Below are positions 3,588-49,798 of a stretch of DNA of 64,000 nucleotides, piece after piece (within the stretch, counting starts at the first letter, position 1; each line of letters opens with the position of its first letter). Location of the stretch: assembly GCA_003252295.1 (NCBI GenBank), contig QKEV01000007.1, positions 9,632-73,631 on the forward strand, written 5' to 3'. Source of the stretch: a bacterium (GTDB taxonomy: Bacteria > Patescibacteriota > Minisyncoccia > Phycocordibacterales > UBA12088). The translations under genes and the position numbers were made by a program. The notes under the pieces were generated by a model, which ran no database searches, had not been told where the DNA came from, and was given only the letters and a program-made list of their open reading frames with translations.

Positions 3588-3593
3588 ATCTGT

Positions 3594-4940
3594 TTACTCC
3601 TGTGTTGTGCTATCAGCAAGCAGTTCTTCTTGTGTTAGGTTTTGTACCTCACCCGTTTTACGATCAATCACTTCAAGTGTACCAGCTTCAATTGTTTTTT
3701 CACTTATGACAACACGAACGGGTATACCTAATAGGTCACTGTCTGCAAACTTCTCACCTGGACGGACATCTCTATCATCATAGAGTACCTCAATACCTTC
3801 ATTTGTGAGCGTTTCAAAGAGTGCGTCAGCTTGTCCGACAACCTTTTCTGAGTCCCCAATGCGGATCAAATGAATCGCAAATGGTGCAATACTTGCTGGC
3901 CACACCAACCCCTTCTCGTCAGCCCATAGTTCAGCAACAGTTCCCATGAGGCGATTTGGTCCAATACCATAGCTGCCCATCACGACAAGCTGATCTTCCC
4001 CTTGTTCATCCTTATAGGTGAGGTTGTGTGCTTGTGAGAAGCGTGTACCAAGATTAAAAATGTTCCCCACCTCAATGGCTTTCTTTTCGACAAAGTCATC
4101 CTTGGTGAGCCCAAGGTCTTTGAGTACTTCATCATTGTACACTTCTTTGTTCACCGCGAGATTTTCTTTCTCACATACGTAGATAATATCTTCACCAGCA
4201 TCAGAGATGGTTTGGAATTCATGACTATACTTTGCAAAAGCACCACCACTTGCAAATGTTTTATACGTGATGCCCTCAAGACCAACGCGAACAAAGACAC
4301 GCATGTACGCAAGAGCAATCGCCTCGTAAAAACGTGCATGTTCTTCATTATCTCTTGAGAACGAGTATAGGTCTTTCATGAGAAACTCTCGAGTACGCAT
4401 GATGCCACTCTTTGCTCGCACCTCATTTCTAAACTTGTTCTGTATTTGGTATGGGTACCTTGGAAGATCACGGTATGATTGAATGTGATCTTTCATCATT
4501 TTTGTGATTGGTTCCTCATGGGTCCAACCGAGTCCTATTTCAGTACCGTTTTGCAGCTTTGATTTAAACCAAACATCAACGTTTTCATCACTCCATCGGT
4601 CTGATGCCTCCCAAACTGATTTGTCTTGTAGTGTTGAAAGACGTATTTCTTGACCACCAACACTAGCCATTTCTTCACGTATAATATCGCTCACTTTTTC
4701 AAGCACACGCAATCCAAGCGGCAGGTAGCTGTAGACACCAGCCTGTTCTTTGTAGAGAAAACCGCCACGTATGAGAAGCTGCGCATTTCGTGCCACCTCA
4801 TCAGAAGGAGCTTGCTTTCTTGTTTTAGTGAAGAGTTCTGATTGTCTCAAACCAAGTGTGTAGTCTTTTGCTGTTTTTGAATTGTTCATGTTGTGCGGTA
4901 TGAAGTAGTAAATAAGCTCCCTGGTAAGTTGTAGTACCAA
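3594..4940 (-). CDS. proS: Prolyl-tRNA synthetase (class II, short form without the INS editing domain)
   Basis: Class II aaRS motifs plus a C-terminal anticodon-binding domain, typical of ProRS. The real start is probably the internal MNNSKTAKD (~4889). Confidence 0.85.
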   Translation of the reverse strand: MVLQLTRELIYYFIPHNMNNSKTAKDYTLGLRQSELFTKTRKQAPSDEVARNAQLLIRGGFLYKEQAGVYSYLPLGLRVLEKVSDIIREEMASVGGQEIRLSTLQDKSVWEASDRWSDENVDVWFKSKLQNGTEIGLGWTHEEPITKMMKDHIQSYRDLPRYPYQIQNKFRNEVRAKSGIMRTREFLMKDLYSFSRDNEEHARFYEAIALAYMRVFVRVGLEGITYKTFASGGAFAKYSHEFQTISDAGEDIIYVCEKENLAVNKEVYNDEVLKDLGLTKDDFVEKKAIEVGNIFNLGTRFSQAHNLTYKDEQGEDQLVVMGSYGIGPNRLMGTVAELWADEKGLVWPASIAPFAIHLIRIGDSEKVVGQADALFETLTNEGIEVLYDDRDVRPGEKFADSDLLGIPVRVVISEKTIEAGTLEVIDRKTGEVQNLTQEELLADSTTQE

Positions 4941-33694: not shown

Positions 33695-33871
33695 TTATTG
33701 TTTTTTATCCAGGCTCATTGCCTGTTCAACTGCATCAGTCACCTTTTTTACAGACGTGTTTAAAAATGTAACGAAATTTGCCATTAACACTAACACAAAT
33801 ACAACGGTCAAAACGGCCGAACTGCATTTAACAATGAGTTCTGATTGTCCTGCATTTGAAAATCTTGACAT
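33695..33871 (-). CDS. Candidate 58-aa membrane microprotein
   Basis: ATG 5 nt after a GGGGGT Shine-Dalgarno motif, one TM helix (VLTVVFVLVLMANFVTFL) and a terminator hairpin just downstream. It is below the ORF-track cutoff. Confidence 0.35.
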   Translation of the reverse strand: MSRFSNAGQSELIVKCSSAVLTVVFVLVLMANFVTFLNTSVKKVTDAVEQAMSLDKKQ

Positions 33872-33994: not shown

Positions 33995-34174
33995 CTACTT
34001 CTTCCAATCTTCTATCACGAGTTTTTTGCCATGTTTTTTGACCACCACTTTCTGTTTCTCGCGCCAGCCAAGCTCGCGTATAAACTCAATAGGTAGTGAG
34101 ACAACAATTGTGCGACCACTACCCACCTTACTTAGTTTACGCACATTTCGTTCATCTAATGATCTTCGTGCCAT
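33995..34174 (-). CDS. Candidate 59-aa AbrB/MazE/SpoVT-type (swapped-hairpin) DNA-binding protein
   Basis: Hand translation gives MARRSLDERNVRKLSKVGSGRTIVVSLPIEFIRELGWREKQKVVVKKHGKKLVIEDWKK, which is the AbrB/MazE pattern (…GGS..VTLPKEW.ELG…). It is below the track cutoff. Confidence 0.4.
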   Translation of the reverse strand: MARRSLDERNVRKLSKVGSGRTIVVSLPIEFIRELGWREKQKVVVKKHGKKLVIEDWKK

Positions 34175-34191: not shown

Positions 34192-34229
34192 CTGCTCATG
34201 AATTAACTCTAGAATTAATTCATGAGCAG
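34192..34229. repeat. 15-bp perfect inverted repeat CTGCTCATGAATTAA-N8-TTAATTCATGAGCAG
   Basis: Read directly. It lies 18 bp upstream of the AbrB-like start and just outside the AT-rich islet boundary. Confidence 0.8.
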
Positions 34230-34383
34230 GTTTGTAAAGAAAAGGTGACTGACCCCTTTTCTTGAAATTATTACAATTTTCTTCATAAATACAGTATATC
34301 AACACTTTATATAAATTGCGTTACAAAAACATTTATCAACCCCATTAGACATAATTATAATCAGATAATATTATTTTCTTTAT

Positions 34384-34971
34384 ATGGGAATAATGTCCTT
34401 AAAGTTACCTATAGTAATTATTGGTCCAATGTGCGTAGGAAAGACTACTGTATCTAAGCTTGTCTCAAGAAAACTTTCTATACCATACTGCTCTCTTGAT
34501 TCAGTGCGCTGGTACTATTATCTAAAAAGTGGTATGGATATCCTGGAAGATGATATTAACAAAGAAAAAAGCTTTGAGGAGTTACTGAGGTCAAGAAGTG
34601 AATATGATACCACTGTTGTTGAAAGAGTATTTTCTGACTTTAAGAACTATGTATTAGATTTTGGTATATCACATGCTTTCCAAGAAAACGCACACAACAA
34701 AGATAAACTATCTGCAATAGTTCAGAAAAATAGAAATTCATTTCTACTTATCCCAAGTACTGATGTTGAAGTGAGTGCTAGTATTCTGAATGAAAGGTTA
34801 AAAGAATTTAGAAATAGTCCAGATATAGAGGATATAATGCAGTTTAATATCAAAACCATAGAAACTTTTTTAGAAACTTATACTAACTCCAAAGTGCTAT
34901 TTACAAAAGACAAGACTCCTAAGCAAGTGTCGCAAGAATTAATTGATTCACTATTTTATAAAGGAACTTAA
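34384..34971 (+). CDS. P-loop kinase, shikimate-kinase-like fold (substrate unknown)
   Basis: Walker A GPMCVGKTT followed by ...SLDSV, matching the GxMGxGKTT…DxD pattern of shikimate- or gluconate-kinase-like NMP-kinase-fold enzymes. Confidence 0.55.
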   Translation: MGIMSLKLPIVIIGPMCVGKTTVSKLVSRKLSIPYCSLDSVRWYYYLKSGMDILEDDINKEKSFEELLRSRSEYDTTVVERVFSDFKNYVLDFGISHAFQENAHNKDKLSAIVQKNRNSFLLIPSTDVEVSASILNERLKEFRNSPDIEDIMQFNIKTIETFLETYTNSKVLFTKDKTPKQVSQELIDSLFYKGT

Positions 34972-35089
34972 AGATCCGAATTATTGGGGACAGGCACAAT
35001 ATTTTATTGTTTTTTATGGTGTAATAATCCTCATCTCCTTTCATCTATTCTACGCCTAAATTACTAAACTACAACACGTTCGTCGTCGG

Positions 35090-35326
35090 TTGTTGTACAC
35101 AGTAATGACTATAGAAGAAAATTGCTTAGAAGAAAGTTTGAGGTTATACGAGATAGACAATGTCTGGTATGCAGTTGGAGTTATGTGTGCTGCTAAAGGA
35201 GGTAAATTGTTACCGCATAATCAAGAACGTAAAATTAATCAGGAACACTTCAGGGTATTAGAAGAAGAGGTTCCTTTTGAATCAGTCTACAATGTGCGTG
35301 TAGAAGACTTTTTTTATGAAAAGTAA
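35090..35326 (+). CDS. Hypothetical 78-aa protein
   Basis: ORF with moderate complexity; it contains R-x5-H (RKINQEH), but that is too little to call HEPN. Confidence 0.3.
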   Translation: MLYTVMTIEENCLEESLRLYEIDNVWYAVGVMCAAKGGKLLPHNQERKINQEHFRVLEEEVPFESVYNVRVEDFFYEK

Positions 35327-35392
35327 AAAATAAAAGGGTCAGGAGGATTTATTTTTAAATAAACAGGAACAGGTACTATTTCTCTATCAGAA

Positions 35393-35827
35393 CTACTTAC
35401 CTTTAACCACCTCTTTAAGCATAAGCAACTTCTTTCTATCTTTTTCCCTATTCATCTTTTTATACGTCTCATACTCTGACTGCAGAGACATGCATGGTAT
35501 AGGCACATCATACTTGTTCACAGTGACTACATGCTTCATAAAATCATGAGGACGTAAACCCTTAGGTTCATCTGAAGCAAAGTTAATCTCAACATCATCA
35601 ACACAGAACACTAGCTCAAGGTACCCGTGTTTATTTATTATCGGAGTATTGAATATTTCTGCTACAGCAAGTATCCCCTCCTTATCAGTAAGAAAATCGA
35701 CATCAGAAGGTTCAGTGTGTATTCCCTGAAACTTAAGGTTAAGCGTACCTATAAGAACATAGTTAATATGTTGTAACTTTTCTGTAATAGTTTTAAATAT
35801 CTTTGCTAAGACAACATCATCCATCAT
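35393..35827 (-). CDS. Small nucleotidyltransferase (MNT / ANT(2'')-Lnu-like minimal NTase fold)
   Basis: VLIGTLNLKFQGIHTEPSDVDFL fits the NTase signature hG[GS]x9-13Dh[DE]h; 144 aa. Confidence 0.5.
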   Translation of the reverse strand: MMDDVVLAKIFKTITEKLQHINYVLIGTLNLKFQGIHTEPSDVDFLTDKEGILAVAEIFNTPIINKHGYLELVFCVDDVEINFASDEPKGLRPHDFMKHVVTVNKYDVPIPCMSLQSEYETYKKMNREKDRKKLLMLKEVVKGK

Positions 35828-35882
35828 ATATACATATTAATACAGCAAGCCATACTCACACTAAGAAGTAAACAAAAATCGA

Positions 35883-36118
35883 ACCCCGATTGCCGCCGTG
35901 AAAACCCGAAGACGTGCCCAAGCACGTCTATCGGACCTTGCAGAGAGAGTTTCTGATGCTTACCCCGCCCCACGGCGGGGTGAATGAAGAAACTATCCTG
36001 CAAGGAGGACAGTCTATAAGACAGTCAAATGACATCGCCTTTACAAGGGCAATCGGATCATACTCCTTGGAGTCTCACAACTAAAAACCACCTCAAGTGC
36101 AACAAGAGGTGGTTTTTA
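35883..36118 (+). ncRNA. Unclassified structured RNA candidate with an intrinsic terminator
   Basis: A GC-rich (~55%) segment in an AT-rich, coding-free region. It has a long-range closing helix CCGAUUGCC (35886) / GGCAAUCGG (36048). Within it lie nested hairpins GACGUGC-CCAA-GCACGUC and CCUUGCAG…AGUUUCU…CCCCGCC-CCAC-GGCGGGG…AGAAACU…CUGCAAGG. It ends in a perfect terminator AAAACCACCUC-N11-GAGGUGGUUUUUAG (36084..36118). Confidence 0.3.
36084..36118. terminator. Intrinsic terminator (11-bp perfect stem AAAACCACCTC / GAGGTGGTTTT, T-runs on both sides)
   Basis: Read directly. Confidence 0.65.
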
Positions 36119-36126
36119 GTTGTGAT

Positions 36127-36185
36127 GTGACCCAATAGCGTGGCTTTCAGAACTGTATGAGAATAAAGTTAATATCAGTAACTCT
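36127..36185 (+). repeat. Repeat B copy 1 (GTGACCCAATAGCGTGGCTTTCAGAACTGTATGAG…), about 85% identical to 37001..37060
   Basis: Aligned by eye; it begins with the GTGACCC core shared with the tRNA-Glu 3' end. Confidence 0.6.
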
Positions 36186-36206
36186 ATTAAAGATTTAGAA
36201 AATATT

Positions 36207-36235
36207 TTAACCCCAACTTAGTTGTTGGGGTTAAG
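36207..36235 (-). terminator. Terminator of the NT5C gene (TTAACCCCAAC / GTTGGGGTTAA perfect stem)
   Basis: Read directly, 20 nt downstream of the stop on the - strand. Confidence 0.5.
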
Positions 36236-36254
36236 CACTTCTGCTTGAGTGTTA

Positions 36255-36833
36255 TTATAGTACTTGAATGATTTCATCCCACGAAGAGACTCTTCTGATA
36301 TTTTTCAAAACGTTGGAATGTTTATTCCAAGGGCAATCAAACAACAATACCTGTATCGCATTTTCTGCACAATCTACTGCATGTTTAGTGTGATCTTCAA
36401 CCATTACGGTAATTCCAAGTTCCTTACATATTTTAGATTTTTTTTCACTTTTTCCATTTAAGCTGTATGAATTAGTAAAATAAATATCTAAAAATAAACC
36501 TGGAAAATGTTTTTCAATCCACTCTTTTGTTTGTTCAATCATATTGTCTCTTCTCCCAGTAATTGCAAACAGCTCAACACCACCTTCTTTCAACTTGTTC
36601 AGAGAAGTGACCGACTTAATCACAGGTAGAATTTTATTACAATGACTTTGGTCTTCAAAAAACATATCAACCTTACGAACCGCTTCTTCTTTTGAACCAC
36701 CCCAAACTTTCCAAAAATCATAGGAAGTGAAATCATTTTTTGATAGATTTCCTCCAAATGTTTCATTATGAAAGCGCGCAAGTGTTGGAACAAAATCTGC
36801 GATCACATCATCTATATCAATACCGATTTTCAT
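36255..36833 (-). CDS. 5'(3')-deoxyribonucleotidase (HAD superfamily, NT5C/YorS-like)
   Basis: N-terminal DIDDVIAD HAD motif I and a GGGAG Shine-Dalgarno motif; full-length similarity to NT5C-type nucleotidases. Confidence 0.7.
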   Translation of the reverse strand: MKIGIDIDDVIADFVPTLARFHNETFGGNLSKNDFTSYDFWKVWGGSKEEAVRKVDMFFEDQSHCNKILPVIKSVTSLNKLKEGGVELFAITGRRDNMIEQTKEWIEKHFPGLFLDIYFTNSYSLNGKSEKKSKICKELGITVMVEDHTKHAVDCAENAIQVLLFDCPWNKHSNVLKNIRRVSSWDEIIQVL

Positions 36834-36940
36834 ATTTATTCTCCCTTTTAAATATGATTAACATGCAGGATGTATTTTCTAAGGTATTTCTAACATTTGT
36901 ATAAAATAAAGCAAACTGAAAATCAGAAGTTCCTGATTAG

Positions 36941-37007
36941 ACATGAAAGTTCTGAACACCCTATGTGGTGCTCTAAAATACATTGAAAAATATAGCTTTA
37001 AAATCTG
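36941..37007 (+). repeat. Repeat A copy 1 (66 nt), an exact duplicate of 38411..38476
   Basis: AGTTCTGAACACCCTATGTGGTGCTCTAAAATACATTGAAAAATATAGCTTTAAAATCTGTGACC occurs twice. Confidence 0.85.
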
Positions 37008-37060
37008 TGACCCATTAGCGTGGCTTTCAGAGTTGTATGAGGTAAAAGTGTAATCAGTCA
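37001..37060 (+). repeat. Repeat B copy 2
   Basis: GTGACCCATTAGCGTGGCTTTCAGAGTTGTATGAG…. Confidence 0.6.
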
Positions 37061-37144
37061 ACTTTTGGTTTTAGTTGTTACATAGCACATTTCTACAACC
37101 ATCTACGCAGAAACACTTGTACACTCGACCTGTATAGGTCTTTT

Positions 37145-37579
37145 GTGTATTCTGAATGTATGACATGTAAAGAAAAAGCAACAACGTATGTACAGTCGCA
37201 AAAGTCTTTACATTTATATCCTCGTGTGCAAGATGCTTTTGAAGAAGTGTTATGTTCATTGTCTGAAGCAGAACTTGATTGGGTTTGTGGCAATTTAGAA
37301 TTGATGGTTTTACACGAACAAGCAGTTGCACAAGTGATGCATTTTGATCCAAAAAAAGCCGCTTTTGCGGTGATGCAATTCACATTTTATGACGACATGC
37401 CTGGCGAGGTGTTGCGATGGGTAATAGCACATGAACTGGGGCATGCTATGCAAAAAAGAAATTGGAGAGAGGGTGATGGAACAGGTTTGGAAGAGGATGC
37501 AGATATTTGTGCTGAACAGTGGGGTTATCTGAAGACAAAAGAGATTGAAGAGTATCTACGTAAGAGGAGAGAAAATTAA
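37145..37579 (+). CDS. Putative HExxH zinc metallopeptidase (ImmA/IrrE- or SprT-like minimal domain)
   Basis: VIAHELGHAM motif in a 144-aa protein. Confidence 0.45.
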   Translation: MYSECMTCKEKATTYVQSQKSLHLYPRVQDAFEEVLCSLSEAELDWVCGNLELMVLHEQAVAQVMHFDPKKAAFAVMQFTFYDDMPGEVLRWVIAHELGHAMQKRNWREGDGTGLEEDADICAEQWGYLKTKEIEEYLRKRREN

Positions 37580-37811
37580 GACTGTTTTATAGAAAAACTT
37601 CATCTCAACTATGCCTGTTATCTGGATATTTGTTAGAGATTAAAGGGTTCAGGTAGTTTTATCTGACACAATTCTAGAGTTAAAAAACACATAATAAATC
37701 ACGTGTTTTTTGTTTTACTTGCTTAAATGGATGTGTTTAGAACACATGATTAGTACTATTGATAATTTGATTCCAAACAACATGAATATCTTTCTGTTTA
37801 CTCCATATATT

Positions 37812-38396
37812 CTATATTTTTTTTCTTAAAATTTGATGCTGAGGATAACCTTCGTCCGTTAATCCATAAGGCATAAGATCTGCACATTCCACGTTGAGTA
37901 GTACGGTCAAAGCTTCCTTTATTGTGTTGTATTTTTCTTTACCAAGCTTCTCTTCTTCGGTGACTCCAAAACGATACCAAGTGTAAAAGTGCCACAGTTC
38001 ATGCATTATATTTTTTCGAACAGTTTCCCTTGGGACAGTTACATACAAAAAATTATTTTCAATACTGTAAGGGTTTCTGTTGTTTACGGTTAAATAGGCT
38101 GTTATGTCTTGAGGCAACGTAACACCAAAAATTGCTTCTGCTCTTTTGTAATACTCGTTTGCTATTTGTAACCACTCTGTCAAATATTTTTCAATATATG
38201 TTTTGATGTTTACATTATGTCCCAGTAAATATTCATCAATGAAATTTGAAACAGTTTCCTCAGTCTGATTTTCACCATATTTTGTGATCAGCAGTTCATA
38301 AACCTTTGTTGGATTTGGGTTGTTGTTTGAGCTCTTACCTTTGTTGAGTAAACACCAAATATCTCTTTCTTTGTTGTATTCAAAAATAAGTTTCAT
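37812..38396 (-). CDS. Hypothetical protein with an HExxH motif (NIMHELWHFY)
   Basis: 194 aa. Repeat A copy 2 lies 15 bp upstream of its start. Confidence 0.4.
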   Translation of the reverse strand: MKLIFEYNKERDIWCLLNKGKSSNNNPNPTKVYELLITKYGENQTEETVSNFIDEYLLGHNVNIKTYIEKYLTEWLQIANEYYKRAEAIFGVTLPQDITAYLTVNNRNPYSIENNFLYVTVPRETVRKNIMHELWHFYTWYRFGVTEEEKLGKEKYNTIKEALTVLLNVECADLMPYGLTDEGYPQHQILRKKI

Positions 38397-38410
38397 AACA
38401 AAAGTATATC

Positions 38411-38476
38411 AGTTCTGAACACCCTATGTGGTGCTCTAAAATACATTGAAAAATATAGCTTTAAAATCTGTGACCC
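38411..38476 (+). repeat. Repeat A copy 2 (66 nt, exact), fused to a tRNA-Glu 3'-end-like sequence
   Basis: See copy 1. Here the repeat continues into CCACGGAGA…. Confidence 0.85.
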
Positions 38477-38650
38477 CACGGAGACGCTTCGCTATCGAAC
38501 TCGCTCCCTATGGTCGCTCTCATAAAACCCACGGTTTTATGATATTCCTCCACGGGAAACCAGCAGGTTTCCCGACCCCTTCCGCTGTTCGATTCTCCGA
38601 CAAAATCTAAGCAACAAAAAATACCCTAGTAAAAAACTAGAGTATTTTTT
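38470..38650 (-). pseudogene. Scrambled tRNA-Glu-derived fragments (degenerate att-site/tRNA remnant), not a functional tRNA
   Basis: A 17-nt direct repeat CTGTGACCCCACGGAGA matches the tRNA-Glu 3' end. Next to it are a T-arm-like segment carrying a 9-nt insertion and an oppositely oriented TTCGATTCTCCG fragment. No acceptor-stem pairing is possible. Confidence 0.4.
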
Positions 38651-38657
38651 GTCGCTG

Positions 38658-38729
38658 TGACCCCACGGAGAATCGAACTCCGATTACCAGGATGAAAACC
38701 TGGCGTCCTAGCCGTTAGACGATGGGGCC
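38658..38729 (-). tRNA. tRNA-Glu (anticodon UUC)
   Basis: GGCCCCATCGTCTAACGGCTAGGACGCCAGGTTTTCATCCTGGTAATCGGAGTTCGATTCTCCGTGGGGTCA folds as a canonical 72-nt cloverleaf: a 7-bp acceptor (one G-U pair), a 4-bp D-stem, a 5-bp anticodon stem, the anticodon loop UUUUCAU, T-loop TTCGATT and discriminator A. CCA is not encoded. Confidence 0.85.
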
Positions 38730-38805
38730 ATTTGTTGTTGCATGATTCTACAATATTTTCAGTAATTTTCAAAGTATTTTGCTGTTTACGTAAAAAATAT
38801 ATATA

Positions 38806-41447: not shown

Positions 41448-42347
41448 ATGTTACAGAAATATCGTTTTATTGTCTTTACCTTTTTTGTTTGTCTTGCGGT
41501 CATTGGTCTTGTGTATGCAAAGTACCATGGTATTGCAAAAGATGCAGAACAAGAGCAAGAAGCTGCGGCTGAACAAGCTGCACTTGAAGATTTAAGCTTT
41601 GTGCGTGGTATACAACCTGACGATCATATTCTTGGCAACCCCAAGGCACCTATTGTATTTTTTGTATACTCTGATTTTGGTTGTACGTACTGTAAGGATT
41701 ACCATAAAACAATGCGACTTTTGACGCAGGTGTATGGAGGTGATGGAAAAATGGCTTGGGTCTTTAGACATTTACCGTATGTGCAGCTTCATCCAGAAGC
41801 ACCAATGTATGCGCTCGCAAGCGAGTGTGTTGCTTCAGAACTTGGTAATGATGCGTTTTGGGCATACACCAATCTTCTATTTGAAAATGCTGACCCACTC
41901 AACCCACTTAGTGCAAGTACGCTCGTGGAGCTTGCAGCAAGTGTTGGTGTAAACAGACAAACATTTGTTACCTGTATGCGTTCAAATGAACTTATGGATG
42001 GTGTACAAGAGGATTTTGAGGAAGGTATGACTGCAGGTGCGCAAGGTACACCATATACTATCGTTGAAACACCAGATGGTCGCTTTGTGTATCAAGGTGC
42101 ACAACCGTACCGTGTTCTTGCGATAGCTCTACAAGATGCGGTTCGTGCCTATGGTGTTAATGAAATTATGTCACCAGACAAATCATCCTCTGTTGGTCGT
42201 GAATACATGAATGATTTTGATGCAATGTTCGCAAGTACTACAGCAAGTACTAGTTCTAGTACACCAACCCCAACTCCTACACCTGTGACAACCCCTGCAC
42301 CAAGCTCAGGTGCAGGTAGTATTCTTGATGGCATTATCACAGACTAG
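41448..42347 (+). CDS. DsbA-like thiol:disulfide oxidoreductase, membrane-anchored
   Basis: N-terminal TM, thioredoxin fold with CTYC active site, and a C-terminal Pro/Thr-rich linker. Confidence 0.75.
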   Translation: MLQKYRFIVFTFFVCLAVIGLVYAKYHGIAKDAEQEQEAAAEQAALEDLSFVRGIQPDDHILGNPKAPIVFFVYSDFGCTYCKDYHKTMRLLTQVYGGDGKMAWVFRHLPYVQLHPEAPMYALASECVASELGNDAFWAYTNLLFENADPLNPLSASTLVELAASVGVNRQTFVTCMRSNELMDGVQEDFEEGMTAGAQGTPYTIVETPDGRFVYQGAQPYRVLAIALQDAVRAYGVNEIMSPDKSSSVGREYMNDFDAMFASTTASTSSSTPTPTPTPVTTPAPSSGAGSILDGIITD

Positions 42348-45300
42348 TTCTTTTCACTAGTATCCATCATGTCTCGAAGTGCACATGCACTACACTCAGG
42401 ATCACCACAACGTTCATCCCAGAATGAAAGTGATGTTATTTTTTGAGCTATGTCACGTATGGTTGTTTTGAGCTCCTCAACCTCAACATTGGTGATCTCA
42501 AACACCTCTTTCTTGTAGTTACCACTTGCCATTGGTTCAAGAAAATCAAGAACAGCTTCCTTCATGCGATACTGTCCTTCATTGAACGTATCGAGAAGTA
42601 GTTTATAAAAAACAAGCTGACGTTTATAACCACCACTGCCTGGTGTGTTTTTTGCACTCTGTGTGGTACCCTCTATCTCATTGCGACTCCTAGGCTTACC
42701 TGTTTTGTAGTCGACAACTCGCACCTCGTGACAACGATCATCAAGACACATAAGGGTGTCAAACTTACCAGTGAGACGTATAGTATTATCAAGTAGAACC
42801 CCACGCACCAAGAGTTCATTTTTTGTTTTTTCTTCCCATGTGCCAGAGTACTTGCTGTGCCACCCAGTGAGTGACGCAGTCATTTCTTTTATGATCCGTT
42901 CAAGTGTTTGTTGGTCAATATCTGCCTCCTCCATGTACTTTGCAAAGGAATCAGTAAGGAACTGTGCGGGCGTATCAGGGTTTCTATTTCTCATGTTAAA
43001 GAAGTCTTCCAGTGCATGGTGTACAGCAGTACCTTTCTGTTGTTGTGCAGTTGGAACAAACTGTGTATGAAAAAAACTTTCATAGAACCATCTCCATGGA
43101 CAGGTTAAAAAGTTGTTGACTGCTGTTGCAGAAAGTCCTCGTTCTTCAAACGCACTCTTAACAAACTCAAGATACTTTTCACGACCATGTCTTCCTTGTC
43201 GTTCAACAAAGAGTGGTGGACGCTTTCCTGCATAGCCAAGTTCAATCCCCGTTTTGTAGGTTTTGCAGTCCTCTGTAATCTCTTCGATAAACTGTGTCGG
43301 AACACGATCACGACCATCAGGTGACCGTGCTGCGTAACTGATGAATACATCTTTGCGGGCGCGTGTTATTGCCACATAGAAGAGACGACGTTCATCATCA
43401 GTATCGTCGTCGATTAAAACAGTAGCACCGCTCCGGTATGGAAGTGTGAAGTATGACCCTTTCCGTTTGCCACCCCAGTGTCCGTCGTAGCTATTAATGA
43501 TATACACGTAGTCAAACTCAAGACCTTTTGCCTTATGTGCTGTCATGAGTCGTACAGAGTTTGGTACCTGACGTGACTTAGCTTCAAGGGTGAGGTTGTG
43601 CTCCTCCAGTATGCGCAGGAACACCTCATAGTCATCAAGTGTAAAGAATGGGTTTCGATAAACATGTGATTTCATTTCATCAAAAAGGCGCACCAGTTTA
43701 TCAAACTTCTCTGCATGGAATGATGAATTTTGTATGTGCTCAAGGAGACCTGACTCACGTACTACTGTTTCAAAGAGAATGAGGAAAGGTTCATTTTCAG
43801 CTATCGATTTCCAACGTTTTATTTTTTTTGCGAGCAACGCAATCGCTTCCGGTTTGGTGTACTCGCACATACCAGGTTTTGTAAGTACTTCAAAAACAGA
43901 AACCTTTTCCTTTTGTGCCGTTTTGAGTATGGTGAAGACATCTTGTACGTCGATACCGAGAAAGTGTATGAAGAGTAGCTTTGCAAGACAGTCGTCATCG
44001 GTGAGGTCAGCAATGCTTCGTAAGAGCATATTGAGCTTTCGAATGTCTGGATCATCAAGTACTCCATGACCAGATTCAATGAGAAATGGAATATTGAGGC
44101 GTTCAAAATAGTCAGCAATTGACTCAACGTCTCTATTGTTTCTGAATAGGACTGCTATTTCGTGCGCGGGAACCCCTTCTTGTATTTGTGCTTTTATTGA
44201 CTCTGCGAGATAGAGAAGCTCTTCATCGTCAGCGTCAAACGTGTATATTTTTGCAGAAATGTCCTGGTTTTTTTGAGGCTGTGTATAAGCAATGAGTGGT
44301 GCATCAATGGTGTCTTTGTTTTTCTTTATAAGTGAGTGTGCAGCATCAAGAACACCTTGATGGCTTCGGTAGTTTGTCTCAAGAGTGATTCTCGTGACAT
44401 TGGTGAACATCTTTTCAAAGTAGAGAAAGTTTGAAAGTGAAGCGCCTTGAAAACGAAAAATTGCCTGCTTTTCATCACCAACCACAAAGAGGTTTGGAGA
44501 ATCAAAGTAGGTTGCTAAAAGTTCTAGAATACGGTTTTGTGCACCATTGGTATCTTGATGTTCATCAACAAGAAAGTACTGGTACTCTTCTTGCAGTTCA
44601 CGGAGAAAGTCTTCATGAGTATCCATTGCCTCAATCAGCATGAGGAGTGAGTCGTCAAAATCATATCGTTTCCTTCGTGCAAGTTCATCTTGGTAGCGTC
44701 CAAAAAGGTAGCTGAGCTCTTCATTTTTTTCTATGGTACGTTGCTCCTTCTGACAGGCCCCTTTCATTTTTCCCTTATGTGCCCCTTTAGTATGGTAGAG
44801 GTCATCCCTGCTTTGAAAAGTAGTTCGTTCCTGTTCTACCCACTCAGCAAATGTCTTAGGTGTAAGTCCTTCGCGTTTGAGACTTGAGAGTGCACTGATT
44901 ATTTTAGGGACATTGTGATACGGTTCATTGATCGGTTTAAGTATTTCAAAGTGTCCACCGTCAATGATGCTACGAACAATATCAATACGTTCTACTTCAC
45001 TACAGTTACTTCTTCCTATGATCTGCTCAAAGCGTTCCGGATAGGTGTCGATGAGATGGTTAGCAAAGCTGTGAAAGGTAAAGATGGAAACTTGGTAACC
45101 ATCACTTCCTATTATTGACACGAGACGCTTGCGCATGTTTGCAGCAGCAGCGTTAGTAAAAGTGAGTGCTAGTATAGCATCAGCAGGAACATCACTGTTC
45201 TTGAGGATGTTTGCAATGCGTAATGTGAGAATTTGTGTTTTCCCTGTCCCTGGACCTGCAATAACCATGACAGGACCCTCAGTGGTATCTACTGCACGCT

Positions 45301-45358
45301 TTTGTTCACGGTTGAGCATGCTGTAGAGGCGATCAAACTCTTTTGAGGTATTCTGCAT
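42344..45358 (-). CDS. UvrD/PcrA-like SF1 helicase fused to a C-terminal PD-(D/E)xK RecB-family nuclease with Fe-S cysteines (AddA/Cas4-like)
   Basis: Helicase motifs (AGPGTGKT, DExQD-like VDEHQDTN) and a C-terminal nuclease motif VVDYKTGKP. Cys residues (CHEVRV…CGDPECSAC) match the Cas4/AddB Fe-S cluster pattern. Confidence 0.8.
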   Translation of the reverse strand: MQNTSKEFDRLYSMLNREQKRAVDTTEGPVMVIAGPGTGKTQILTLRIANILKNSDVPADAILALTFTNAAAANMRKRLVSIIGSDGYQVSIFTFHSFANHLIDTYPERFEQIIGRSNCSEVERIDIVRSIIDGGHFEILKPINEPYHNVPKIISALSSLKREGLTPKTFAEWVEQERTTFQSRDDLYHTKGAHKGKMKGACQKEQRTIEKNEELSYLFGRYQDELARRKRYDFDDSLLMLIEAMDTHEDFLRELQEEYQYFLVDEHQDTNGAQNRILELLATYFDSPNLFVVGDEKQAIFRFQGASLSNFLYFEKMFTNVTRITLETNYRSHQGVLDAAHSLIKKNKDTIDAPLIAYTQPQKNQDISAKIYTFDADDEELLYLAESIKAQIQEGVPAHEIAVLFRNNRDVESIADYFERLNIPFLIESGHGVLDDPDIRKLNMLLRSIADLTDDDCLAKLLFIHFLGIDVQDVFTILKTAQKEKVSVFEVLTKPGMCEYTKPEAIALLAKKIKRWKSIAENEPFLILFETVVRESGLLEHIQNSSFHAEKFDKLVRLFDEMKSHVYRNPFFTLDDYEVFLRILEEHNLTLEAKSRQVPNSVRLMTAHKAKGLEFDYVYIINSYDGHWGGKRKGSYFTLPYRSGATVLIDDDTDDERRLFYVAITRARKDVFISYAARSPDGRDRVPTQFIEEITEDCKTYKTGIELGYAGKRPPLFVERQGRHGREKYLEFVKSAFEERGLSATAVNNFLTCPWRWFYESFFHTQFVPTAQQQKGTAVHHALEDFFNMRNRNPDTPAQFLTDSFAKYMEEADIDQQTLERIIKEMTASLTGWHSKYSGTWEEKTKNELLVRGVLLDNTIRLTGKFDTLMCLDDRCHEVRVVDYKTGKPRSRNEIEGTTQSAKNTPGSGGYKRQLVFYKLLLDTFNEGQYRMKEAVLDFLEPMASGNYKKEVFEITNVEVEELKTTIRDIAQKITSLSFWDERCGDPECSACALRDMMDTSEKN

Positions 45359-45442
45359 GGAGAGAGTATAGCACGGAGCAGAAAAGTTTTTTTAATTACA
45401 TAAATACACCCTGAGATGTCTCAGGGTGTATTGTGATTTTTA

Positions 45443-46888
45443 CTAGTAGTTACGTAGGCAACGTGCCATTTCGTGATGCCGTATTTTCTCAATAGCTTTT
45501 GCTTCAATTTGTCGAATACGTTCACGGGTAACACCAAACTCACGACCGACCTCTTCAAGGGTATGGTAAATACCATCCTCCAGTCCGTGCCGAAGCACAA
45601 GAATCTTACGTTCTTTTGGAGATAGGAAGTCGAGTATTGTGTGTAGCTGTTCAGTGAGGATCTTATGTGCGGTATCCTGATCCGGACTATCCATCGTCTC
45701 ATCTTTAATGAAGTCACGGAGTACACTTCTGTCGTCGTCTGCGTCACCTACAGGACTTTCAAGCGAGATGGTATCCTGACTGATCTTTTCAATGAGGTAT
45801 ATCTTGTCTACCTCTATACCCATTTCGATAGCAACTTCCTCCTGCGACGGGTCACGACCAAGGTCTTGTGAAAGTCGTCTGAACACTTGCTTGTACTTAG
45901 TGATCGTTTCTACCATGTGCACTGGAATACGAATAGTTCTTGACTGATCAGCGAGTGCGCGTGTTATCGCCTGTCGTATCCACCAAGTGGCATAGGTAGA
46001 GAACTTGTACCCCTTTGTATAGTCAAACTTATCTACTGCTTTAAAGAGTCCGATATTACCCTCCTGAATAAGGTCAAGGAGTGTAAGATCAGGACTTCTA
46101 CCAATGTAGCGTTTTGCAATAGAAACAACGAGTCGCAGGTTTGATCGAGCAAGTAAGTTTCTTGCCTCTTCTTCACCTTCCATGACGCGTTTTGCCAATG
46201 CACGTTCCTCTTGTACGTTCAAAAGATGGTACTGTCCTATCTCACGAAGGTACATTTGTATGGAATCATGAGCAGAGTTTCGTGCATGTCGGTGGTATGT
46301 GTTCTTTTCACTTGGTGTGAGGATCTTTTCATCACTCAAAATGTTACCACCTTCAATAACATCAATGCTTGCTGCATTGAGCTTATCGTACAGGTCATCC
46401 AGTAAGGTAATGTCATCTTCAATTCGAGGAAACTCACGAAGTATCTCGTCATAGATAACATAACCACGCTCTCTTCCTTTTTGGAGGAGATTTTCAACCT
46501 TATTATGCTGTTCTTGTTGTTTAGGTGAAAGTTTTACTGTTGCTTTCTTTTTAGCAACAGCTTTCTTTGGAGCTGCTTTCTTTGGCACACTCTTTTTAGC
46601 GACTTGCTTTGCTTTAGCCGCTTTTTCCTTCACAACTTTTTTGAGCTGTTTACCGGTCAATTTCTTTTTTTTGACCGCCGCCACCTTTTTGGTTGCAGCT
46701 CGTCCCGCTTTAGCGGTAGTATTCTTTTTTTTCGCGACAGGCCTTTTGGTCTTTACTGTCGCCTTTGTTTTTGTAACCTTTTTAGCTGCCTGTGCAGCTT
46801 TTGTTTTGGTTACTGTTTTTTTTACAGACGCCTTTTTGGCGACCGTTTTTTTGGACGCTTTTTTCTTATGTAATGTTTTAGCAGCCAT
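45443..46888 (-). CDS. rpoD: RNA polymerase sigma-70 factor RpoD with a histone-H1-like Lys/Ala-rich N-terminal extension
   Basis: Regions 1.2-4.2 are conserved (…[21 protein letters not shown]…). About 125 N-terminal residues consist of AKK/TKK repeats. Confidence 0.9.
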
Positions 46889-46920
46889 GTGTAATGGTTA
46901 CGATGAGTATATAGTACTCT

Positions 46921-48654
46921 TTACATATGTTCAAGTGTCTCCTTAAGTTTTGAAAGCCCTGTGACTTCTTTGATGAGTAATTCAGTTTCTTGTGTATCGT
47001 TGCGTGCTTCTGCTTCACGGAGTCTACGCATGAGGTCAGCAAGTTTTTCTACCATGGTCATTTTAGAAAGTTCTTTACTGAGTTCTGTGAGTCGACCAAG
47101 TGGTGACTCAGGTTGCTCACAAATGATTTCTGCTTGCATTGCGAGCGTTTCCTTTTCCTCAGTATATTTGGAAAGTAAGTCTGCATATGAAAGATGCATG
47201 GACTCTTCAAGTTTTGATACTTCATCAGTGGTGACATCTTTTTTTTCTAAGCCATCCTGCCAAAAAAGAATACCTGCTATTGTTTTTTCTAGATCTTTTT
47301 TTCTAGAAAAAGTGTTTTTTTGTACTTCAGGTCTCTGACCTTGTGTACCTCTTGGCACACCGTAGCTAGTGGCACTTTTTAGAGTACGTATATCGGTGTA
47401 CACCGCTTCTTCAGGTATACCTAGCATGTTTGCAACTCGTTGAACAAAGTGTGCCTGATCAGTGGCACTCTGTATAAGTGCCACGTACGGGTATACTAAG
47501 TTCTGTGCTTCAAGGAGTAACTTCCTGTTATCCCATGATGCTTCTCTTGACCTATCGATAAGTGTTGTGAGGTAAAAGTCTACTATATGCACTGCTCCTT
47601 TGATTGCTTCCTTCCATGCTGAAACGTCTTCAAGGATACAGTCAGCTGGATCTTTACCTAGGGGAACCTTTGCAACCTTGAGGTCGATACCTCGCTTGAG
47701 TGCTAAGATTGCCGCTCTTCCACTCGAAGCAATACCGGCAGGGTCAGCATCAAAGGCAGTTACAATTTTTTTTGTAAGTCGGTCTATAAGGGTAAGGTGT
47801 TGCTCCGTAAGTCCTGTGCCTGAGACAGCTACAGTGTTACCGTATCCAGCTTGATGACACATGACAATATCCATTTGTCCCTCAACAAGAATTGCAAAAT
47901 CATACTTTCGTATGTGCTGTTTTGCCTTATCGTAGCCATACAGTATCCTGCTTTTATCAAAAAGTTGTGTTTCAGGAGAGTTGAGGTACTTTGCATTGTT
48001 TTTATCCTCAGCGGCTTCACCAAATATTCTGCCACTAAATGCAACAACCCTACCTGTGCTGTCCATGATAGGAAATATGATGCGTGAGCGAAAACGGTCA
48101 TAGTACCTACCACTCTCACCTTTTTTTATGAGACCAGCACGTTCCATTTCTGTTTCTGTGTACTTCATTCTGGTAAGGTGCTCATGAAGTGCCTGCCAAA
48201 CTGCCGGAGCATAGCCAAGTCGAAAACTTCGCATGGTTGCCATTTCAAGACCACGTTTTTGTAGGTAATCTTGGGCAGGTTTTTCTTCACTAAGTTTTGT
48301 TTCAAAAAAGCGACATGCTTCTTCCGTTATTGCATAGAGACGGTCACGTGCATCACGTGATGCTTGATGTTCATGTTGCAACTGTACACCTGCTTTATCA
48401 GCAAGAATTTTCAAGGCGCCTTTAAAATCAACACCTTCCATTTTTTGTACAAAGGAAAATATGTCGCCACCCTGACTCGTAGAAAAGTCGTAGTACATTC
48501 CCTTATCTGGACTGACAAAGAAGCTTGGTGTTTTTTCATTAGTAAAAGGAGAAAGTCCTTTATAGTTTTTTCCTGCTTTTGTGAGTTTTGCGTACTGACC
48601 AACAACATCAACAATGTTGAGTTTATCTTTGATTTCCTGCACTTGGTCGCTCAT
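46921..48654 (-). CDS. dnaG: DNA primase DnaG (zinc-ribbon ligands substituted)
   Basis: Toprim/RNA-polymerase core motifs (EGQMD…, DADPAG) are present. The N-terminal zinc-binding domain is recognisable, but C-H-C-C is replaced by S-T-D-T (SPFTNEKTPSF…YYDFSTSQGG). Confidence 0.9.
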   Translation of the reverse strand: MSDQVQEIKDKLNIVDVVGQYAKLTKAGKNYKGLSPFTNEKTPSFFVSPDKGMYYDFSTSQGGDIFSFVQKMEGVDFKGALKILADKAGVQLQHEHQASRDARDRLYAITEEACRFFETKLSEEKPAQDYLQKRGLEMATMRSFRLGYAPAVWQALHEHLTRMKYTETEMERAGLIKKGESGRYYDRFRSRIIFPIMDSTGRVVAFSGRIFGEAAEDKNNAKYLNSPETQLFDKSRILYGYDKAKQHIRKYDFAILVEGQMDIVMCHQAGYGNTVAVSGTGLTEQHLTLIDRLTKKIVTAFDADPAGIASSGRAAILALKRGIDLKVAKVPLGKDPADCILEDVSAWKEAIKGAVHIVDFYLTTLIDRSREASWDNRKLLLEAQNLVYPYVALIQSATDQAHFVQRVANMLGIPEEAVYTDIRTLKSATSYGVPRGTQGQRPEVQKNTFSRKKDLEKTIAGILFWQDGLEKKDVTTDEVSKLEESMHLSYADLLSKYTEEKETLAMQAEIICEQPESPLGRLTELSKELSKMTMVEKLADLMRRLREAEARNDTQETELLIKEVTGLSKLKETLEHM

Positions 48655-48694
48655 AGGTAGCTCTATGGTACACGTGAGAAGGTGATTTCACAAC

Positions 48695-48723
48695 AAAAAA
48701 TGCACCTAGTAGGTGCATTTTTT
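48695..48723. terminator. Bidirectional intrinsic terminator (AAAAATGCACCT / AGGTGCATTTTT)
   Basis: Read directly; it sits between the dnaG start region and the upstream pilin-like gene. Confidence 0.6.
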
Positions 48724-48749
48724 GTAATAATTTGTAGTTTAGTAACGGT

Positions 48750-49121
48750 TTATATGTTAACCGATGGAATATCAATTGTTCCGCCAACCTCAACGCCTAC
48801 CATCTCTGCAAGAATATCTACTAATCCCCAAACAGAAACCATAACGAATAGTGCGAAAATACCCCAAACCATTTTACGTTTACCTTCAGCAGCTGCTTCT
48901 GAATCACCAGATGCAATGATAAATTGCACGAGACCCCAAATGAAAAAGAGTAAGCCAAGTGCGATTGCAAGTGGGATCAACTGGGTTATTAGTTCAGCGA
49001 TCGCTTGTACTCCATTATCTATGTACGATAAATCAGGGCTTTGTGCGTACGTTAGACTAAATGGAAAAATAGCCATTCCAGCAACGATAAGTAAGCTTTG
49101 TGTTATATTTTTCATATTCAT
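48750..49121 (-). CDS. VirB2/TrbC-like pilin-like small membrane protein (signal peptide plus two hydrophobic helices)
   Basis: Signal peptide ending …TYAQS, then two TM segments separated by a short charged loop, in 123 aa. This is the T4SS-pilin architecture; no other T4SS genes are in the window. Confidence 0.3.
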   Translation of the reverse strand: MNMKNITQSLLIVAGMAIFPFSLTYAQSPDLSYIDNGVQAIAELITQLIPLAIALGLLFFIWGLVQFIIASGDSEAAAEGKRKMVWGIFALFVMVSVWGLVDILAEMVGVEVGGTIDIPSVNI

Positions 49122-49159
49122 GTACTCTATACTAGCACATTAATTAATAATTGTCAACA

Positions 49160-49798
49160 CTACTGTGTGTAGAAATCAATAATTTGATTTGCTATTGCTT
49201 TATCGTCATCCATGGTAGGAAGTGCCCTGTTTTCATCGTAAAGACAGGTTTCTGGGTTCCATTGATCCTCACATGCGTAAAGTCGCGGGTTAAAGATCGA
49301 GTAAGTTACTACCACATCATCCTCAGAGAAGAAAACATACCCACTCCCCATGGTGAGCATAGCGCTAGTATCCTCATCCTCTTCCAGCTTTCTAAACGAA
49401 ACATATACATCATGGCCATTTTTGTTGTACTGTTCTGAAAGCCCAACTCGCGAAGGCGACTGGTAGCGTGCCCACGCCTTTTCTTTCAAAAGAGGCATAT
49501 CATCTTTATCAACGTTTTGCACAAGAACAGTTAGTGCTAACCTTCCTTGTTCATCATAGTATTGTCCCTGTGTAGAGGTGACCTCGAATGAAGCAGATTC
49601 CTCATCAGTAGGACCAATGGTTATGGTGTATGGTTCATCTACATCTTCACTAGATGTAAGCATCATGGTATATGATCCACTGAATGTCGGTCGTAAAAAT
49701 GCTGATAATGCACCCTCTTTTGGTATAAATGATTTTGCTAAAAAACCTACTAAGAGTAATGTAAGAACCGCAAGTGTGATAGCTACGATGTTTTTCAT
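49160..49798 (-). CDS. Hypothetical secreted/anchored protein
   Basis: N-terminal signal anchor; 212 aa. Confidence 0.5.
   Translation of the reverse strand: MKNIVAITLAVLTLLLVGFLAKSFIPKEGALSAFLRPTFSGSYTMMLTSSEDVDEPYTITIGPTDEESASFEVTSTQGQYYDEQGRLALTVLVQNVDKDDMPLLKEKAWARYQSPSRVGLSEQYNKNGHDVYVSFRKLEEDEDTSAMLTMGSGYVFFSEDDVVVTYSIFNPRLYACEDQWNPETCLYDENRALPTMDDDKAIANQIIDFYTQ

Follow-up and report, generated by a model that had tools for sequence, protein, structure and literature searches.

A putative tandem array of small gene cassettes at the 3' end of a tRNA-Glu gene in a member of the Patescibacteriota

How do genes become established at the 3' end of a tRNA gene if no integrase gene lies beside them? 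This question is raised by a 64-kb window (part of the 154-kb contig QKEV01000007.1 of the GenBank assembly GCA_003252295.1) from a bacterium of the Patescibacteriota, in which an intact tRNA-Glu(UUC) gene, the sole tRNA gene of the window, is followed by AT-rich DNA with repeated copies of the tRNA end. In a preliminary description, which was made from the nucleotide sequence, this DNA was interpreted as the result of serial site-specific insertions at the tRNA 3' end that reach as far as position 34246. The junctions and the comparison with relatives support this interpretation for positions 36126 to 38671; it does not extend to 34246, as the array ends at 36126. The region between 36126 and 38671 is probably a tandem array of three cassettes that were inserted by a site-specific recombinase encoded elsewhere.

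Junctions and cassettes downstream of the tRNA-Glu gene

In the window, repeat A (66 nt) is present in two copies that are 100% identical (Table 1), and two matches were reached in no shuffled sequence. The copies of repeat B share 86% identity over 44 nt (36126-36169 and 37006-37049) and 83% identity over 60 nt. Moreover, the 3' end of the tRNA-Glu gene together with 2 nt, CTGTGACCCCACGGAGA, occurs exactly twice, at a distance of 187 nt (self-BLAST E=0.006 within 6 kb). Repeats A and B and the 17-nt tRNA end have no further copies in the window, and none are expected by chance. The earlier observations of a direct repeat of the tRNA end, of exact 66-bp copies bounding a pair of HExxH genes and of GTGACCC motifs at 36127 and at the next core that lead into repeat B are borne out. 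However, the core reported at 37001 is located at 37005/37007, and repeat A is a conserved 5' arm of the cassettes rather than an incidental segment repeat.

The GTGACCC motif occurs 11 times in the window as compared to 4.4 expected copies, of which only the plus-strand copies at 36127, 37007, 38470 and 38657 are embedded in longer repeats. At these four same-strand (C)TGTGACCC copies, the similarity among A, B and the 17-nt tRNA end changes partner precisely. Such partner switching at one short core is expected from repeated integration between an attP-type attachment site, formed by A and B, and an attB-type site, formed by the terminator and the tRNA. Junction S2 is an attP-like composite of A and B, and the 3' end of the tRNA-Glu gene provides the attachment core on the attB side. 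Across 11 aligned junctions from four genomes, the heptanucleotide GGTCACA is invariant. Furthermore, the junction alignment revealed that the B arm matches the T-arm and the acceptor end of tRNA-Glu, save for an insertion of 4-9 nt; on the tRNA strand, repeat B mimics the region from the T-loop to the 3' end of tRNA-Glu.

The three cassettes have sizes of 0.17-1.5 kb and contain none to two genes each. On the tRNA strand, the tRNA is followed by a core, cassette 3, a core, cassette 2, a core, cassette 1, a core and the hairpin T1, which is probably the original terminator downstream of the tRNA-Glu gene and the end of the array. Each core-to-core segment has its own cargo, as had been described: the NT5C gene, two HExxH genes, and tRNA remnants. 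Cassette 1 is composed of A1, the NT5C gene, a terminator and B1, and the identity between A1 and A2 stops precisely at the limit of the conserved A element of relatives. Cassette 2 consists of A2, the HExxH-194 gene, the HExxH-144 gene, which converges on HExxH-194, and B2, which reads ...CTCTGAAAGCCACGCTAATGGGTCACAG on the tRNA strand. HExxH-144 gave only weak zincin matches; it had no tBLASTN match in 85 related loci and no counterpart in related arrays. Cassette 3 begins with T2 and further contains two hairpins, a T-arm fragment in inverted orientation and a T-arm that resembles that of tRNA-Glu but has 9 nt inserted. According to the alignment, it is a window-specific insertion, and in relatives the tRNA-Glu gene adjoins A directly. 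Comparable inserts without an open reading frame (ORF) but with tRNA 3'-repeat boundaries are present in L099, L072, L096 and L056 (L numbers denote fetched loci, including metagenome contigs; about 110 loci were obtained in total). PADLOC and NCBIfam searches provided no informative match for the cargo. While the NT5C gene indeed lies within a cassette, the kinase-like gene, the nucleotidyltransferase (NTase)-like gene and the RNA candidate that had also been listed as cargo are neighbours for which the search revealed no att boundary.

Table 1 Features of the array in the window and of a hairpin module in related loci
Feature	Position	Strand	Description	Basis
tRNA-Glu(UUC)	38657-38729	minus	intact tRNA gene	ARAGORN; Rfam tRNA model 59.4 bits
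Junction S4	38655-38671	plus	true tRNA 3' end; hairpin T2 / CTGTGACCC / tRNA body	
T2	38610-38656	minus	terminator-like hairpin, 20 pairs, directly 3' of the tRNA	inverted repeat; terminator scan
Cassette 3	38485-38654	minus	no ORF; 170 nt between the 17-nt repeats	sequence; alignment with relatives
Junction S3	38468-38484	plus	displaced 17-nt copy of the tRNA 3' end; A2 / core / tRNA-like arm	
A2	38411-38476	minus	66-nt 5' arm of cassette 2, core included	exact repeat; nhmmer E=6.5e-19
HExxH-194	37812-38396	minus	gene of cassette 2	
HExxH-144	37145-37579	plus	second HExxH gene, 144 aa (139 aa from ATG 37160)	ORF list
B2	37006-37063	minus	3' arm of cassette 2	nhmmer E=9.5e-13; junction alignment
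Junction S2	37005-37013	plus	A / B; core CTGTGACCC common to A1 and B2; repeat families overlap	
A1	36948-37013	minus	5' arm of cassette 1, 100% identical to A2	
NT5C	36255-36833	minus	NT5C-type 5'(3')-deoxyribonucleotidase gene, cargo of cassette 1	Pfam PF06941 E=1.2e-14
NT5C terminator	36207-36234	minus	terminator-like hairpin	terminator scan
B1	36126-36184	minus	3' arm of cassette 1, ends in core TGTGACCC	nhmmer E=1.2e-15
Junction S1	36126-36133		hairpin T1 / B in plus-strand reading; core TGTGACCC	
T1	36075-36125		perfect 20-bp hairpin with flanking A/T runs, right after the last core	100% complementary inverted repeat
Hairpin module	L028 8789-8895			
Hairpin module	L031 9931-10037			
Hairpin module	L096 7828-7930			
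Hairpin module	L100 4838-4933			
Hairpin module	L098 4758-4825		weak match	

The cassettes would have been inserted one after another into the 3' end of the tRNA-Glu gene. On the tRNA strand, each cassette would comprise the A arm, the cargo and the B arm and would end in the 7-9-nt core GGTCACA(G). In a circular cassette, the B arm, the core and the A arm would form an attP-like site of about 110 nt, which could recombine with either the 3' end of the tRNA or a core of the existing array, leading to insertion of the cassette. Each insertion would rebuild the tRNA and leave a core at every junction, and the original terminator T1 would be displaced to the far end. The recombinase would be encoded elsewhere, either in the same genome or by a helper element, and it is most likely a tyrosine recombinase with a 7-bp overlap. 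The seven invariant nucleotides would match the size of overlap that tyrosine recombinases use. What the sequences show is the junction pattern, the homologous arrays with other contents, the conservation of the cassette between its cores and the lack of a linked recombinase among the ORFs scanned, whereas we infer the circular intermediates, the type of recombinase and any present-day activity of the system.

Pfam searches detected no recombinase or transposase domain in the ORFs of the islet or in 30 other ORFs of the window (most ORFs of at least about 200 aa). The scanned window ORFs are housekeeping or unannotated genes, and the genes at 42344-49798 carry Pfam annotations of the housekeeping type. 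Likewise, no recombinase recurs near 84 related loci: fragments of large serine recombinases were present in only four loci, and a Xer-like gene lies 6 kb away in one. The earlier statement that no integrase, recombinase or transposase is encoded therefore holds for the scanned ORFs. An integrase or another recurrent neighbour of the HExxH family was also considered and rejected; the largest neighbour cluster, an ABC ATPase, occurred in 8 of the 84 loci.

The GC content is 0.31-0.37 in the region as compared to about 0.43 in the flanks. It falls from about 33.6 kb, at the end of a deacetylase gene, and recovers at about 39.2 kb, beyond the tRNA. Thus, the limits of the GC drop coincide neither with 34246, where its onset had been placed, nor with the tRNA. 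Position 34246 had also been described as a degenerate core. Profiles built from 7-8 copies of B and A recovered only the known copies and gave no match at this position, which forms the loop of a 9-bp hairpin within a divergent promoter region. A resemblance of this site to the C-terminal codons of a Y1 transposase (KEKVTDPFS*) stops short and has no upstream extension. The tRNA-Glu gene is preceded by a promoter-like site (38772-38745, minus strand), and Rfam searches at gathering and permissive thresholds revealed nothing in the sequence except the tRNA. Searches for exact copies of the proteins yielded only short Logan contigs of the same genome. L001 (Logan SRR7216773, 945 nt) and L021 (10.3 kb) are independent short-read assemblies of this genome, which break at window position 36978, inside repeat A, and also at 36034 and about 39542. 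The break of L001 at 36978 occurs because A is a repeat, and the other two breaks could stem from low coverage or from population variants near the array.

Related arrays and tRNA-linked loci

The same A/B junction elements are present at tRNA-Glu genes of relatives, where they flank other cassettes in other orders, as anticipated for a locus with variable cargo. Between the window and these relatives, A is 82-85% identical (A2 versus L027 4358-4425 and L028 7939-7986), the core part of B 93-96% and the HExxH coding DNA 72-74%. In L027 and L028, A is a conserved spacer joining the tRNA-Glu gene directly to the HExxH gene. L027 has the order tRNA, A, HExxH gene with an additional ORF, B and terminator; a terminator hairpin comes after its last B-like arm and core, an arrangement also seen at S1 and T1 in the window. 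L028 contains two cassettes with an A-like and a B-like arm on either side of each. In L029, the tRNA-Glu gene is followed by A, a GC-rich gene, the composite B.A, the HExxH gene, B, an NYN-like gene and B'.A; thus, the HExxH gene stands in second position, and the GC content of the cargo differs between the cassettes (0.56 versus 0.39). Among L027, L028 and L029, the HExxH unit measured from core to core (795 bp) shares 90.6-92.6% identity, whereas the adjacent tRNA-Glu gene with A reaches only 81-83% and a neighbouring tRNA-Ser gene 85%. The cassette is therefore more conserved than the tRNA genes of its hosts, and the limits of this conservation lie exactly at the cores. Variation of this kind, in presence and in position, is what the preliminary description had demanded as a check of its interpretation. 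These arrays suggest that related Patescibacteria share a system that moves single-gene cassettes, notably those with HExxH genes, between tRNA-anchored arrays.

An A-HExxH-B cassette is also present in L024 (GCA_041920275.1, JAYRSE010000014.1, positions 2441-3660), where it lies inside a degraded Y1 transposase gene that is similar to those of the insertion sequence (IS) family IS200 or to REP-associated tyrosine transposases (RAYTs; REP, repetitive extragenic palindrome). The N-terminal part with the HUH motif precedes the cassette, the C-terminal part (WMNEPQT...GLESTRRPGGGLKKVTPF) follows it, and the middle of the gene is missing. L025 and L026 have the same arrangement. The cassette of L024 looks like an off-target insertion at ATCACA. 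The genome is Paceibacteria-like, and its best UppP relatives reach 70% identity. A search of genome contigs anchored on UppP found nothing closer than 39% identity, and the UppP homologues of L022 and L023 (66-70% identity) either end or lose synteny right after UppP and have no tRNA. When viral contigs were scanned for the patterns of A and B, the four scans yielded either no matches or four chance matches in GC-rich coding DNA, which had neither an A element nor an HExxH gene.

HExxH-194 is not an exotic piece of cargo. It belongs to a putative gluzincin-fold or gluzincin-like family that is widely conserved in Patescibacteria and strongly linked to tRNA genes. The family has no Pfam entry, comprises 580 clusters (best identity 69-71% at full length) and contains many invariant residues. 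A metagenome scan with the family uncovered 80 more loci. Among the 63 loci with at least 450 nt of upstream sequence, a tRNA gene on the same strand lies at most 450 nt upstream of the HExxH start in 15, as compared to about 2.3% expected. The linked tRNAs have nine anticodons for Glu, Gln, Ser, Trp, Arg, Asn and His, and a linkage to tRNA-Asp was found in shorter contigs. In the window, the gene stops at a TAG codon (37812-37814, codon 195) in place of a conserved Leu codon, and the product lacks the last 18 or so residues of the family members, which have about 212 aa. The in-frame continuation past the stop (37794-37811), NIWSKQKDIHVVW, still fits the C-terminal helix of the family. The TAG codon is a recent nonsense mutation, and the gene of the window may be decaying. 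An extended -10-like element, TGATATACT, directly follows the A arm 9-12 nt before the HExxH start codon (window 38411-38400; L027, L028 and L029), and its equivalent in L068 is TGGTATACT. Going by sequence, this spacing suggests very short leaders or leaderless HExxH transcripts. In L068, the promoter-proximal segment of the HExxH gene is duplicated before an NTase gene.

Other tRNA genes carry comparable structures. Direct repeats of the 3' end of their own tRNA flank or precede the HExxH gene in L050, L072, L078, L081, L096 and L099, and arrays with repeated junction elements were found in L050 (tRNA-Ser, arms of 108 and 152 nt), L068 and L081 (tRNA-Asn, five repeat copies over 8 kb). L072 and L099, like L068, also have this architecture. 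The cargo of the arrays in L050, L068 and L081, as judged by sequence without a domain search, includes nucleotidyltransferase-, NUDIX-, endonuclease/phosphatase-, aminoglycoside phosphotransferase- and RelE-like genes. Of the 43 tRNA genes away from HExxH genes, 8 have at least 13 nt of their 3' end repeated exactly within 6 kb, and so do 4 of the 24 with an HExxH gene within 1.5 kb downstream. In these Patescibacteria, the 3' ends of tRNA genes seem to act as general hot spots for insertion.

The repeats at the eight tRNA genes are 13-30 nt long and located downstream (L067, L068, L074, L079, L096, L098 and L100); in L067, L068, L074 and L098, they bound ORF-less inserts of about 70-250 nt. 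In L100 (783-4951), tRNA-Asn is followed by an insert of 4.1 kb, whose boundaries are marked by a repeat of 19 nt from the tRNA 3' end. Its sequence motifs indicate genes for an AAA ATPase and for a subtilisin-like (S8) peptidase of 747 aa, which together look like a defence-type gene pair, and the insert has no integrase. In addition, a conserved hairpin module of 70-110 nt, CGAGTCGGGGTCGAGAACACTT...ATACTTAGTGA..CGTGACC (Table 1), lies directly 5' of displaced partial 3' ends of tRNA-His, tRNA-Asn and probably tRNA-Gln. In L031, it precedes a tRNA-like 3' fragment and in L028 a degenerate core of the tRNA-Glu array. RNAalifold predicted 21 pairs, nine of which show compensatory changes. The module was not detected in the 64-kb window. 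It may serve as a folded site of recombination, or it may be a small RNA that belongs to a second family of tRNA-end inserts without an ORF.

Alternative explanations and known systems

Several observations weigh against the insertion of cassettes by a recombinase acting from elsewhere. No recombinase was identified, and neither a circular form nor an empty site was observed directly. The closest relatives share about 70% protein identity, and none allowed a strain-level comparison of presence and absence at the exact locus. There are no clear inverted-repeat binding sites beside the 7-nt core, and the AT-richness runs past the array on both sides. Two contexts of NT5C homologues were examined, in which the genes lie in ordinary surroundings without A/B elements or a nearby tRNA; NT5C homologues as cassettes elsewhere were thus rejected. 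A1 and A2 are 100% identical, whereas the A copies inside the arrays of relatives share 80-86% identity, so that gene conversion or a very recent local event or shuffling must be added to the model. Finally, the model holds no explanation of how genes become cassettes.

Alternatively, the array could be what is left of one or several conventional islands or prophages that had integrated at the tRNA. These would have lost their integrase by deletion in a streamlined genome, and only att scars and a few cargo genes would persist in an immobile state. Displaced partial tRNA copies and degenerate remnants are usual at tRNA island sites (10.1101/2020.12.28.424599; PMC4383910), the ORF-less 170-nt unit resembles a scar and HExxH-194 contains a premature stop. 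The entire zone from 33.6 to 39.2 kb is AT-rich, and other tRNAs often have ORF-less inserts between repeats of their 3' end, as the 8 of 43 cases illustrate. However, the arms are more conserved across genomes than coding DNA, and the 795-bp unit shares 91-93% identity between hosts with a difference of 15-19% in their tRNAs and occupies different positions in different arrays. This conservation and the shifting positions suggest that the units move as such and are not random products of deletion. Moreover, neither an integrase nor an integrase fragment lies beside the tRNA in any array examined, and we regard decay as an unlikely origin of the array.

Even less probable is a scenario without any site-specific recombinase, in which A, as an upstream or promoter element, and B, as a 3' element, are portable regulatory modules that spread by homologous or microhomology-dependent recombination after DNA uptake, with the match to the tRNA end being a short microhomology. 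The position of A just upstream of the extended -10-like element before the HExxH gene in all relatives and the duplication of an A-like promoter-proximal segment before a different gene in L068 are compatible with it. Arms of 60-110 nt would be long enough to serve as patches of homology, and A1 and A2 are identical. However, A1 lacks the -10 element that follows A2, every junction in the four genomes breaks at the invariant GGTCACA of the tRNA 3' end, and the cores at other tRNAs match their own tRNA. The B arm as a mimic of the T-arm suits an att site and has no obvious regulatory logic.

We consider it very unlikely that the HExxH protein itself drives the movement as a new tRNA-end-directed nuclease or recombination factor, with the other cassettes hitch-hiking. 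It is the sole protein encoded in minimal units with flanking repeats (about 760 bp in L078, about 1.05 kb in L050 and 795 bp in L028 and L029), the family is linked to at least nine tRNA species whose flanking cores match each tRNA, and it combines many invariant residues with the absence of a Pfam family. However, the protein has no apparent DNA-binding domain, the window copy is truncated, and repeats of the tRNA 3' end are as frequent without a nearby HExxH gene. That the array is a classical integron array minus its integrase, i.e. a cluster of attC sites lacking integron-integrases (CALIN), is hardly credible: between the mostly single-gene cassettes lie composite elements of about 100 nt whose outer parts are inverted repeats (in L029, AAAGTTCTGAA...TTCAGAACTTT with an 11-bp stem) and the L081/L068 cargo types resemble integron cassettes, but the junctions contain no GTTRRRY/RYYYAAC box, the core is a tRNA 3' end inside the element instead of at its outer end, IntI is absent and attC-like folding was rejected, as the single-stranded window composite folds no better than shuffled sequences (z -0.46 and +0.86) and that of L029 reaches only z -3.2 from the outer stem alone.

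The proposed insertion of cassettes at the tRNA end has parallels in known systems. Islander islands and tycheposons integrate into the 3' part of tRNA genes, regenerate the tRNA and have displaced partial copies at their ends; successive integrations push older units outward, and degenerate remnants accumulate (PMC4383910; 10.1101/2020.12.28.424599). Like Islander-type islands and the tycheposons of Prochlorococcus, the array lies at a tRNA 3' end with a rebuilt tRNA, partial copies, outward stacking and remnants. The intact tRNA and displaced 3' direct repeat that characterise Islander islands are present in the form of the 17-nt repeat and of 8-9-nt cores with tRNA-like arms at 37005 and 36126. 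However, neither the Islander-type integrase inside the island nor the tyrosine recombinase with a replication or helicase-primase module of tycheposons was found among the islet and window ORFs scanned with Pfam; the units hold only NT5C, two HExxH genes or no ORF. Unlike tRNA islands, the units measure only 0.17-1.5 kb, the related arrays examined likewise contain no integrase, replication or excision gene in their units, and the junction arms form a shared cassette site that is conserved from genome to genome.

Integron cassettes and CALINs are similar in that they are small, mostly single-gene units of heterogeneous composition with conserved elements of about 100 nt between them; as in CALINs, the same cassette occurs at different array positions, and the arrays have no recombinase. 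In contrast to integrons, the junction elements lack the attC consensus (RYYYAAC...GTTRRRY boxes) and the bulged single-stranded DNA hairpin, and the anchor is a tRNA 3' end instead of attI beside intI. An IntI gene, which belongs to complete integrons and is not required for a CALIN, was not found among the scanned window ORFs. Moreover, the core is derived from the tRNA and varies with the tRNA used, and the cassettes have an upstream arm with promoter-proximal sequence.

Cis-mobilizable elements (CIMEs) are flanked by att sites, have no recombination genes and are presumably moved by the integrase of another element. The units of the array are likewise att-flanked, stand in tandem at a tRNA-type site and carry no recombination or transfer genes. 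Site-specific accretion beside integrative and conjugative elements (ICEs) and integrative and mobilizable elements (IMEs) is treated in a review (PMC5704250). In contrast to CIMEs, none of the loci seen has an adjacent ICE, IME or integrase, and the units are ten-fold smaller. The pdif modules of Acinetobacter plasmids are Xer-dependent, recombinase-less gene modules at 28-bp XerC/D sites in inverted orientation. They share with the units the small size, the short conserved sites and the use of a host recombinase in trans; they differ in that the sites of the array are direct repeats of a tRNA 3' end on a chromosome, in which no dif-like motif was recognised. There was also no indication of IS200/IS605 or REP/RAYT elements, which have a Y1 transposase and subterminal hairpins, insert on the 3' side of a short target and produce no direct repeat: Y1_Tnp ORFs exist only in L024-L026, degraded and interrupted by the cassette, none is present in the window, and the arms form only weak stems of 3-4 bp. 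The array thus resembles tandem tRNA islands and units of the integron or CIME type, yet it departs from each of them, with no integrase in its units, no attC consensus and no helper element adjacent in the loci seen. In the literature, no account of such arrays was found for the Candidate Phyla Radiation (CPR).

Neighbouring segment and biological meaning

The segment from 33.6 to 36.07 kb is AT-rich accessory DNA in which the A and B profiles detected no att boundary. Its genes are MazE/AbrB-like (33995-34174, minus strand), kinase-like of the AAA_18 type and NTase-like, with an additional ORF of 78 aa; a strongly structured RNA candidate is also present. A perfect palindrome of 19+19 nt, CTGCTCATGAATTAACTCT/AGAATTAATTCATGAGCAG, at 34192-34229 between the divergent MazE/AbrB-like and kinase-like genes is a likely operator for the AbrB-type regulator. 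The MazE/AbrB-like gene is followed by a possible partner ORF (33695-33871, minus strand) of 58 aa with a hydrophobic segment. The core of the RNA candidate (35880-36070) lies between the NTase-like gene and the array, directly ahead of T1, and is non-coding and relatively GC-rich. Its minimum free energy corresponds to z-scores of -11.4 (plus strand) and -10.1 (minus strand), and the predicted fold is a multi-stem junction closed by CCGATTGCC/GGCAATCGG. Neither an Rfam match nor a homologue in the approximately 110 fetched loci was found; the candidate may represent a small RNA or else a leader that belongs to the NTase-like gene on the minus strand (start 35827).

The array is most likely a variation on tRNA islands and integron-like arrays, both of which are already known. 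A more far-reaching idea, which is tentative and rather doubtful, is that Patescibacteria possess a widespread integron-like but differently built platform, in which tRNA 3' ends are the insertion site for cassettes of none to two genes with an element of about 110 nt mimicking the tRNA end. The recombinase would be encoded elsewhere, or mobility would be conferred by the HExxH protein or by a folded hairpin site, as in the module beside displaced partial tRNAs, and the platform would be the main means of accessory-gene exchange of these largely uncultured bacteria with tiny genomes.

The Patescibacteria (CPR) represent a large share of bacterial diversity and have genomes of about 1 Mb with few recognised mobile elements; for this reason, their acquisition of accessory genes is poorly understood. 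For genome annotation, short repeats of tRNA 3' ends in these bacteria are meaningful boundaries even if no integrase is present. The arrays also draw attention to a conserved and uncharacterised HExxH family with a strong linkage to tRNA genes. Furthermore, they would supply a concrete and testable mechanism for accessory-gene acquisition, suggest an undescribed route by which single genes are swapped, and would serve as an independent analogue of integrons for studying how genes turn into cassettes.

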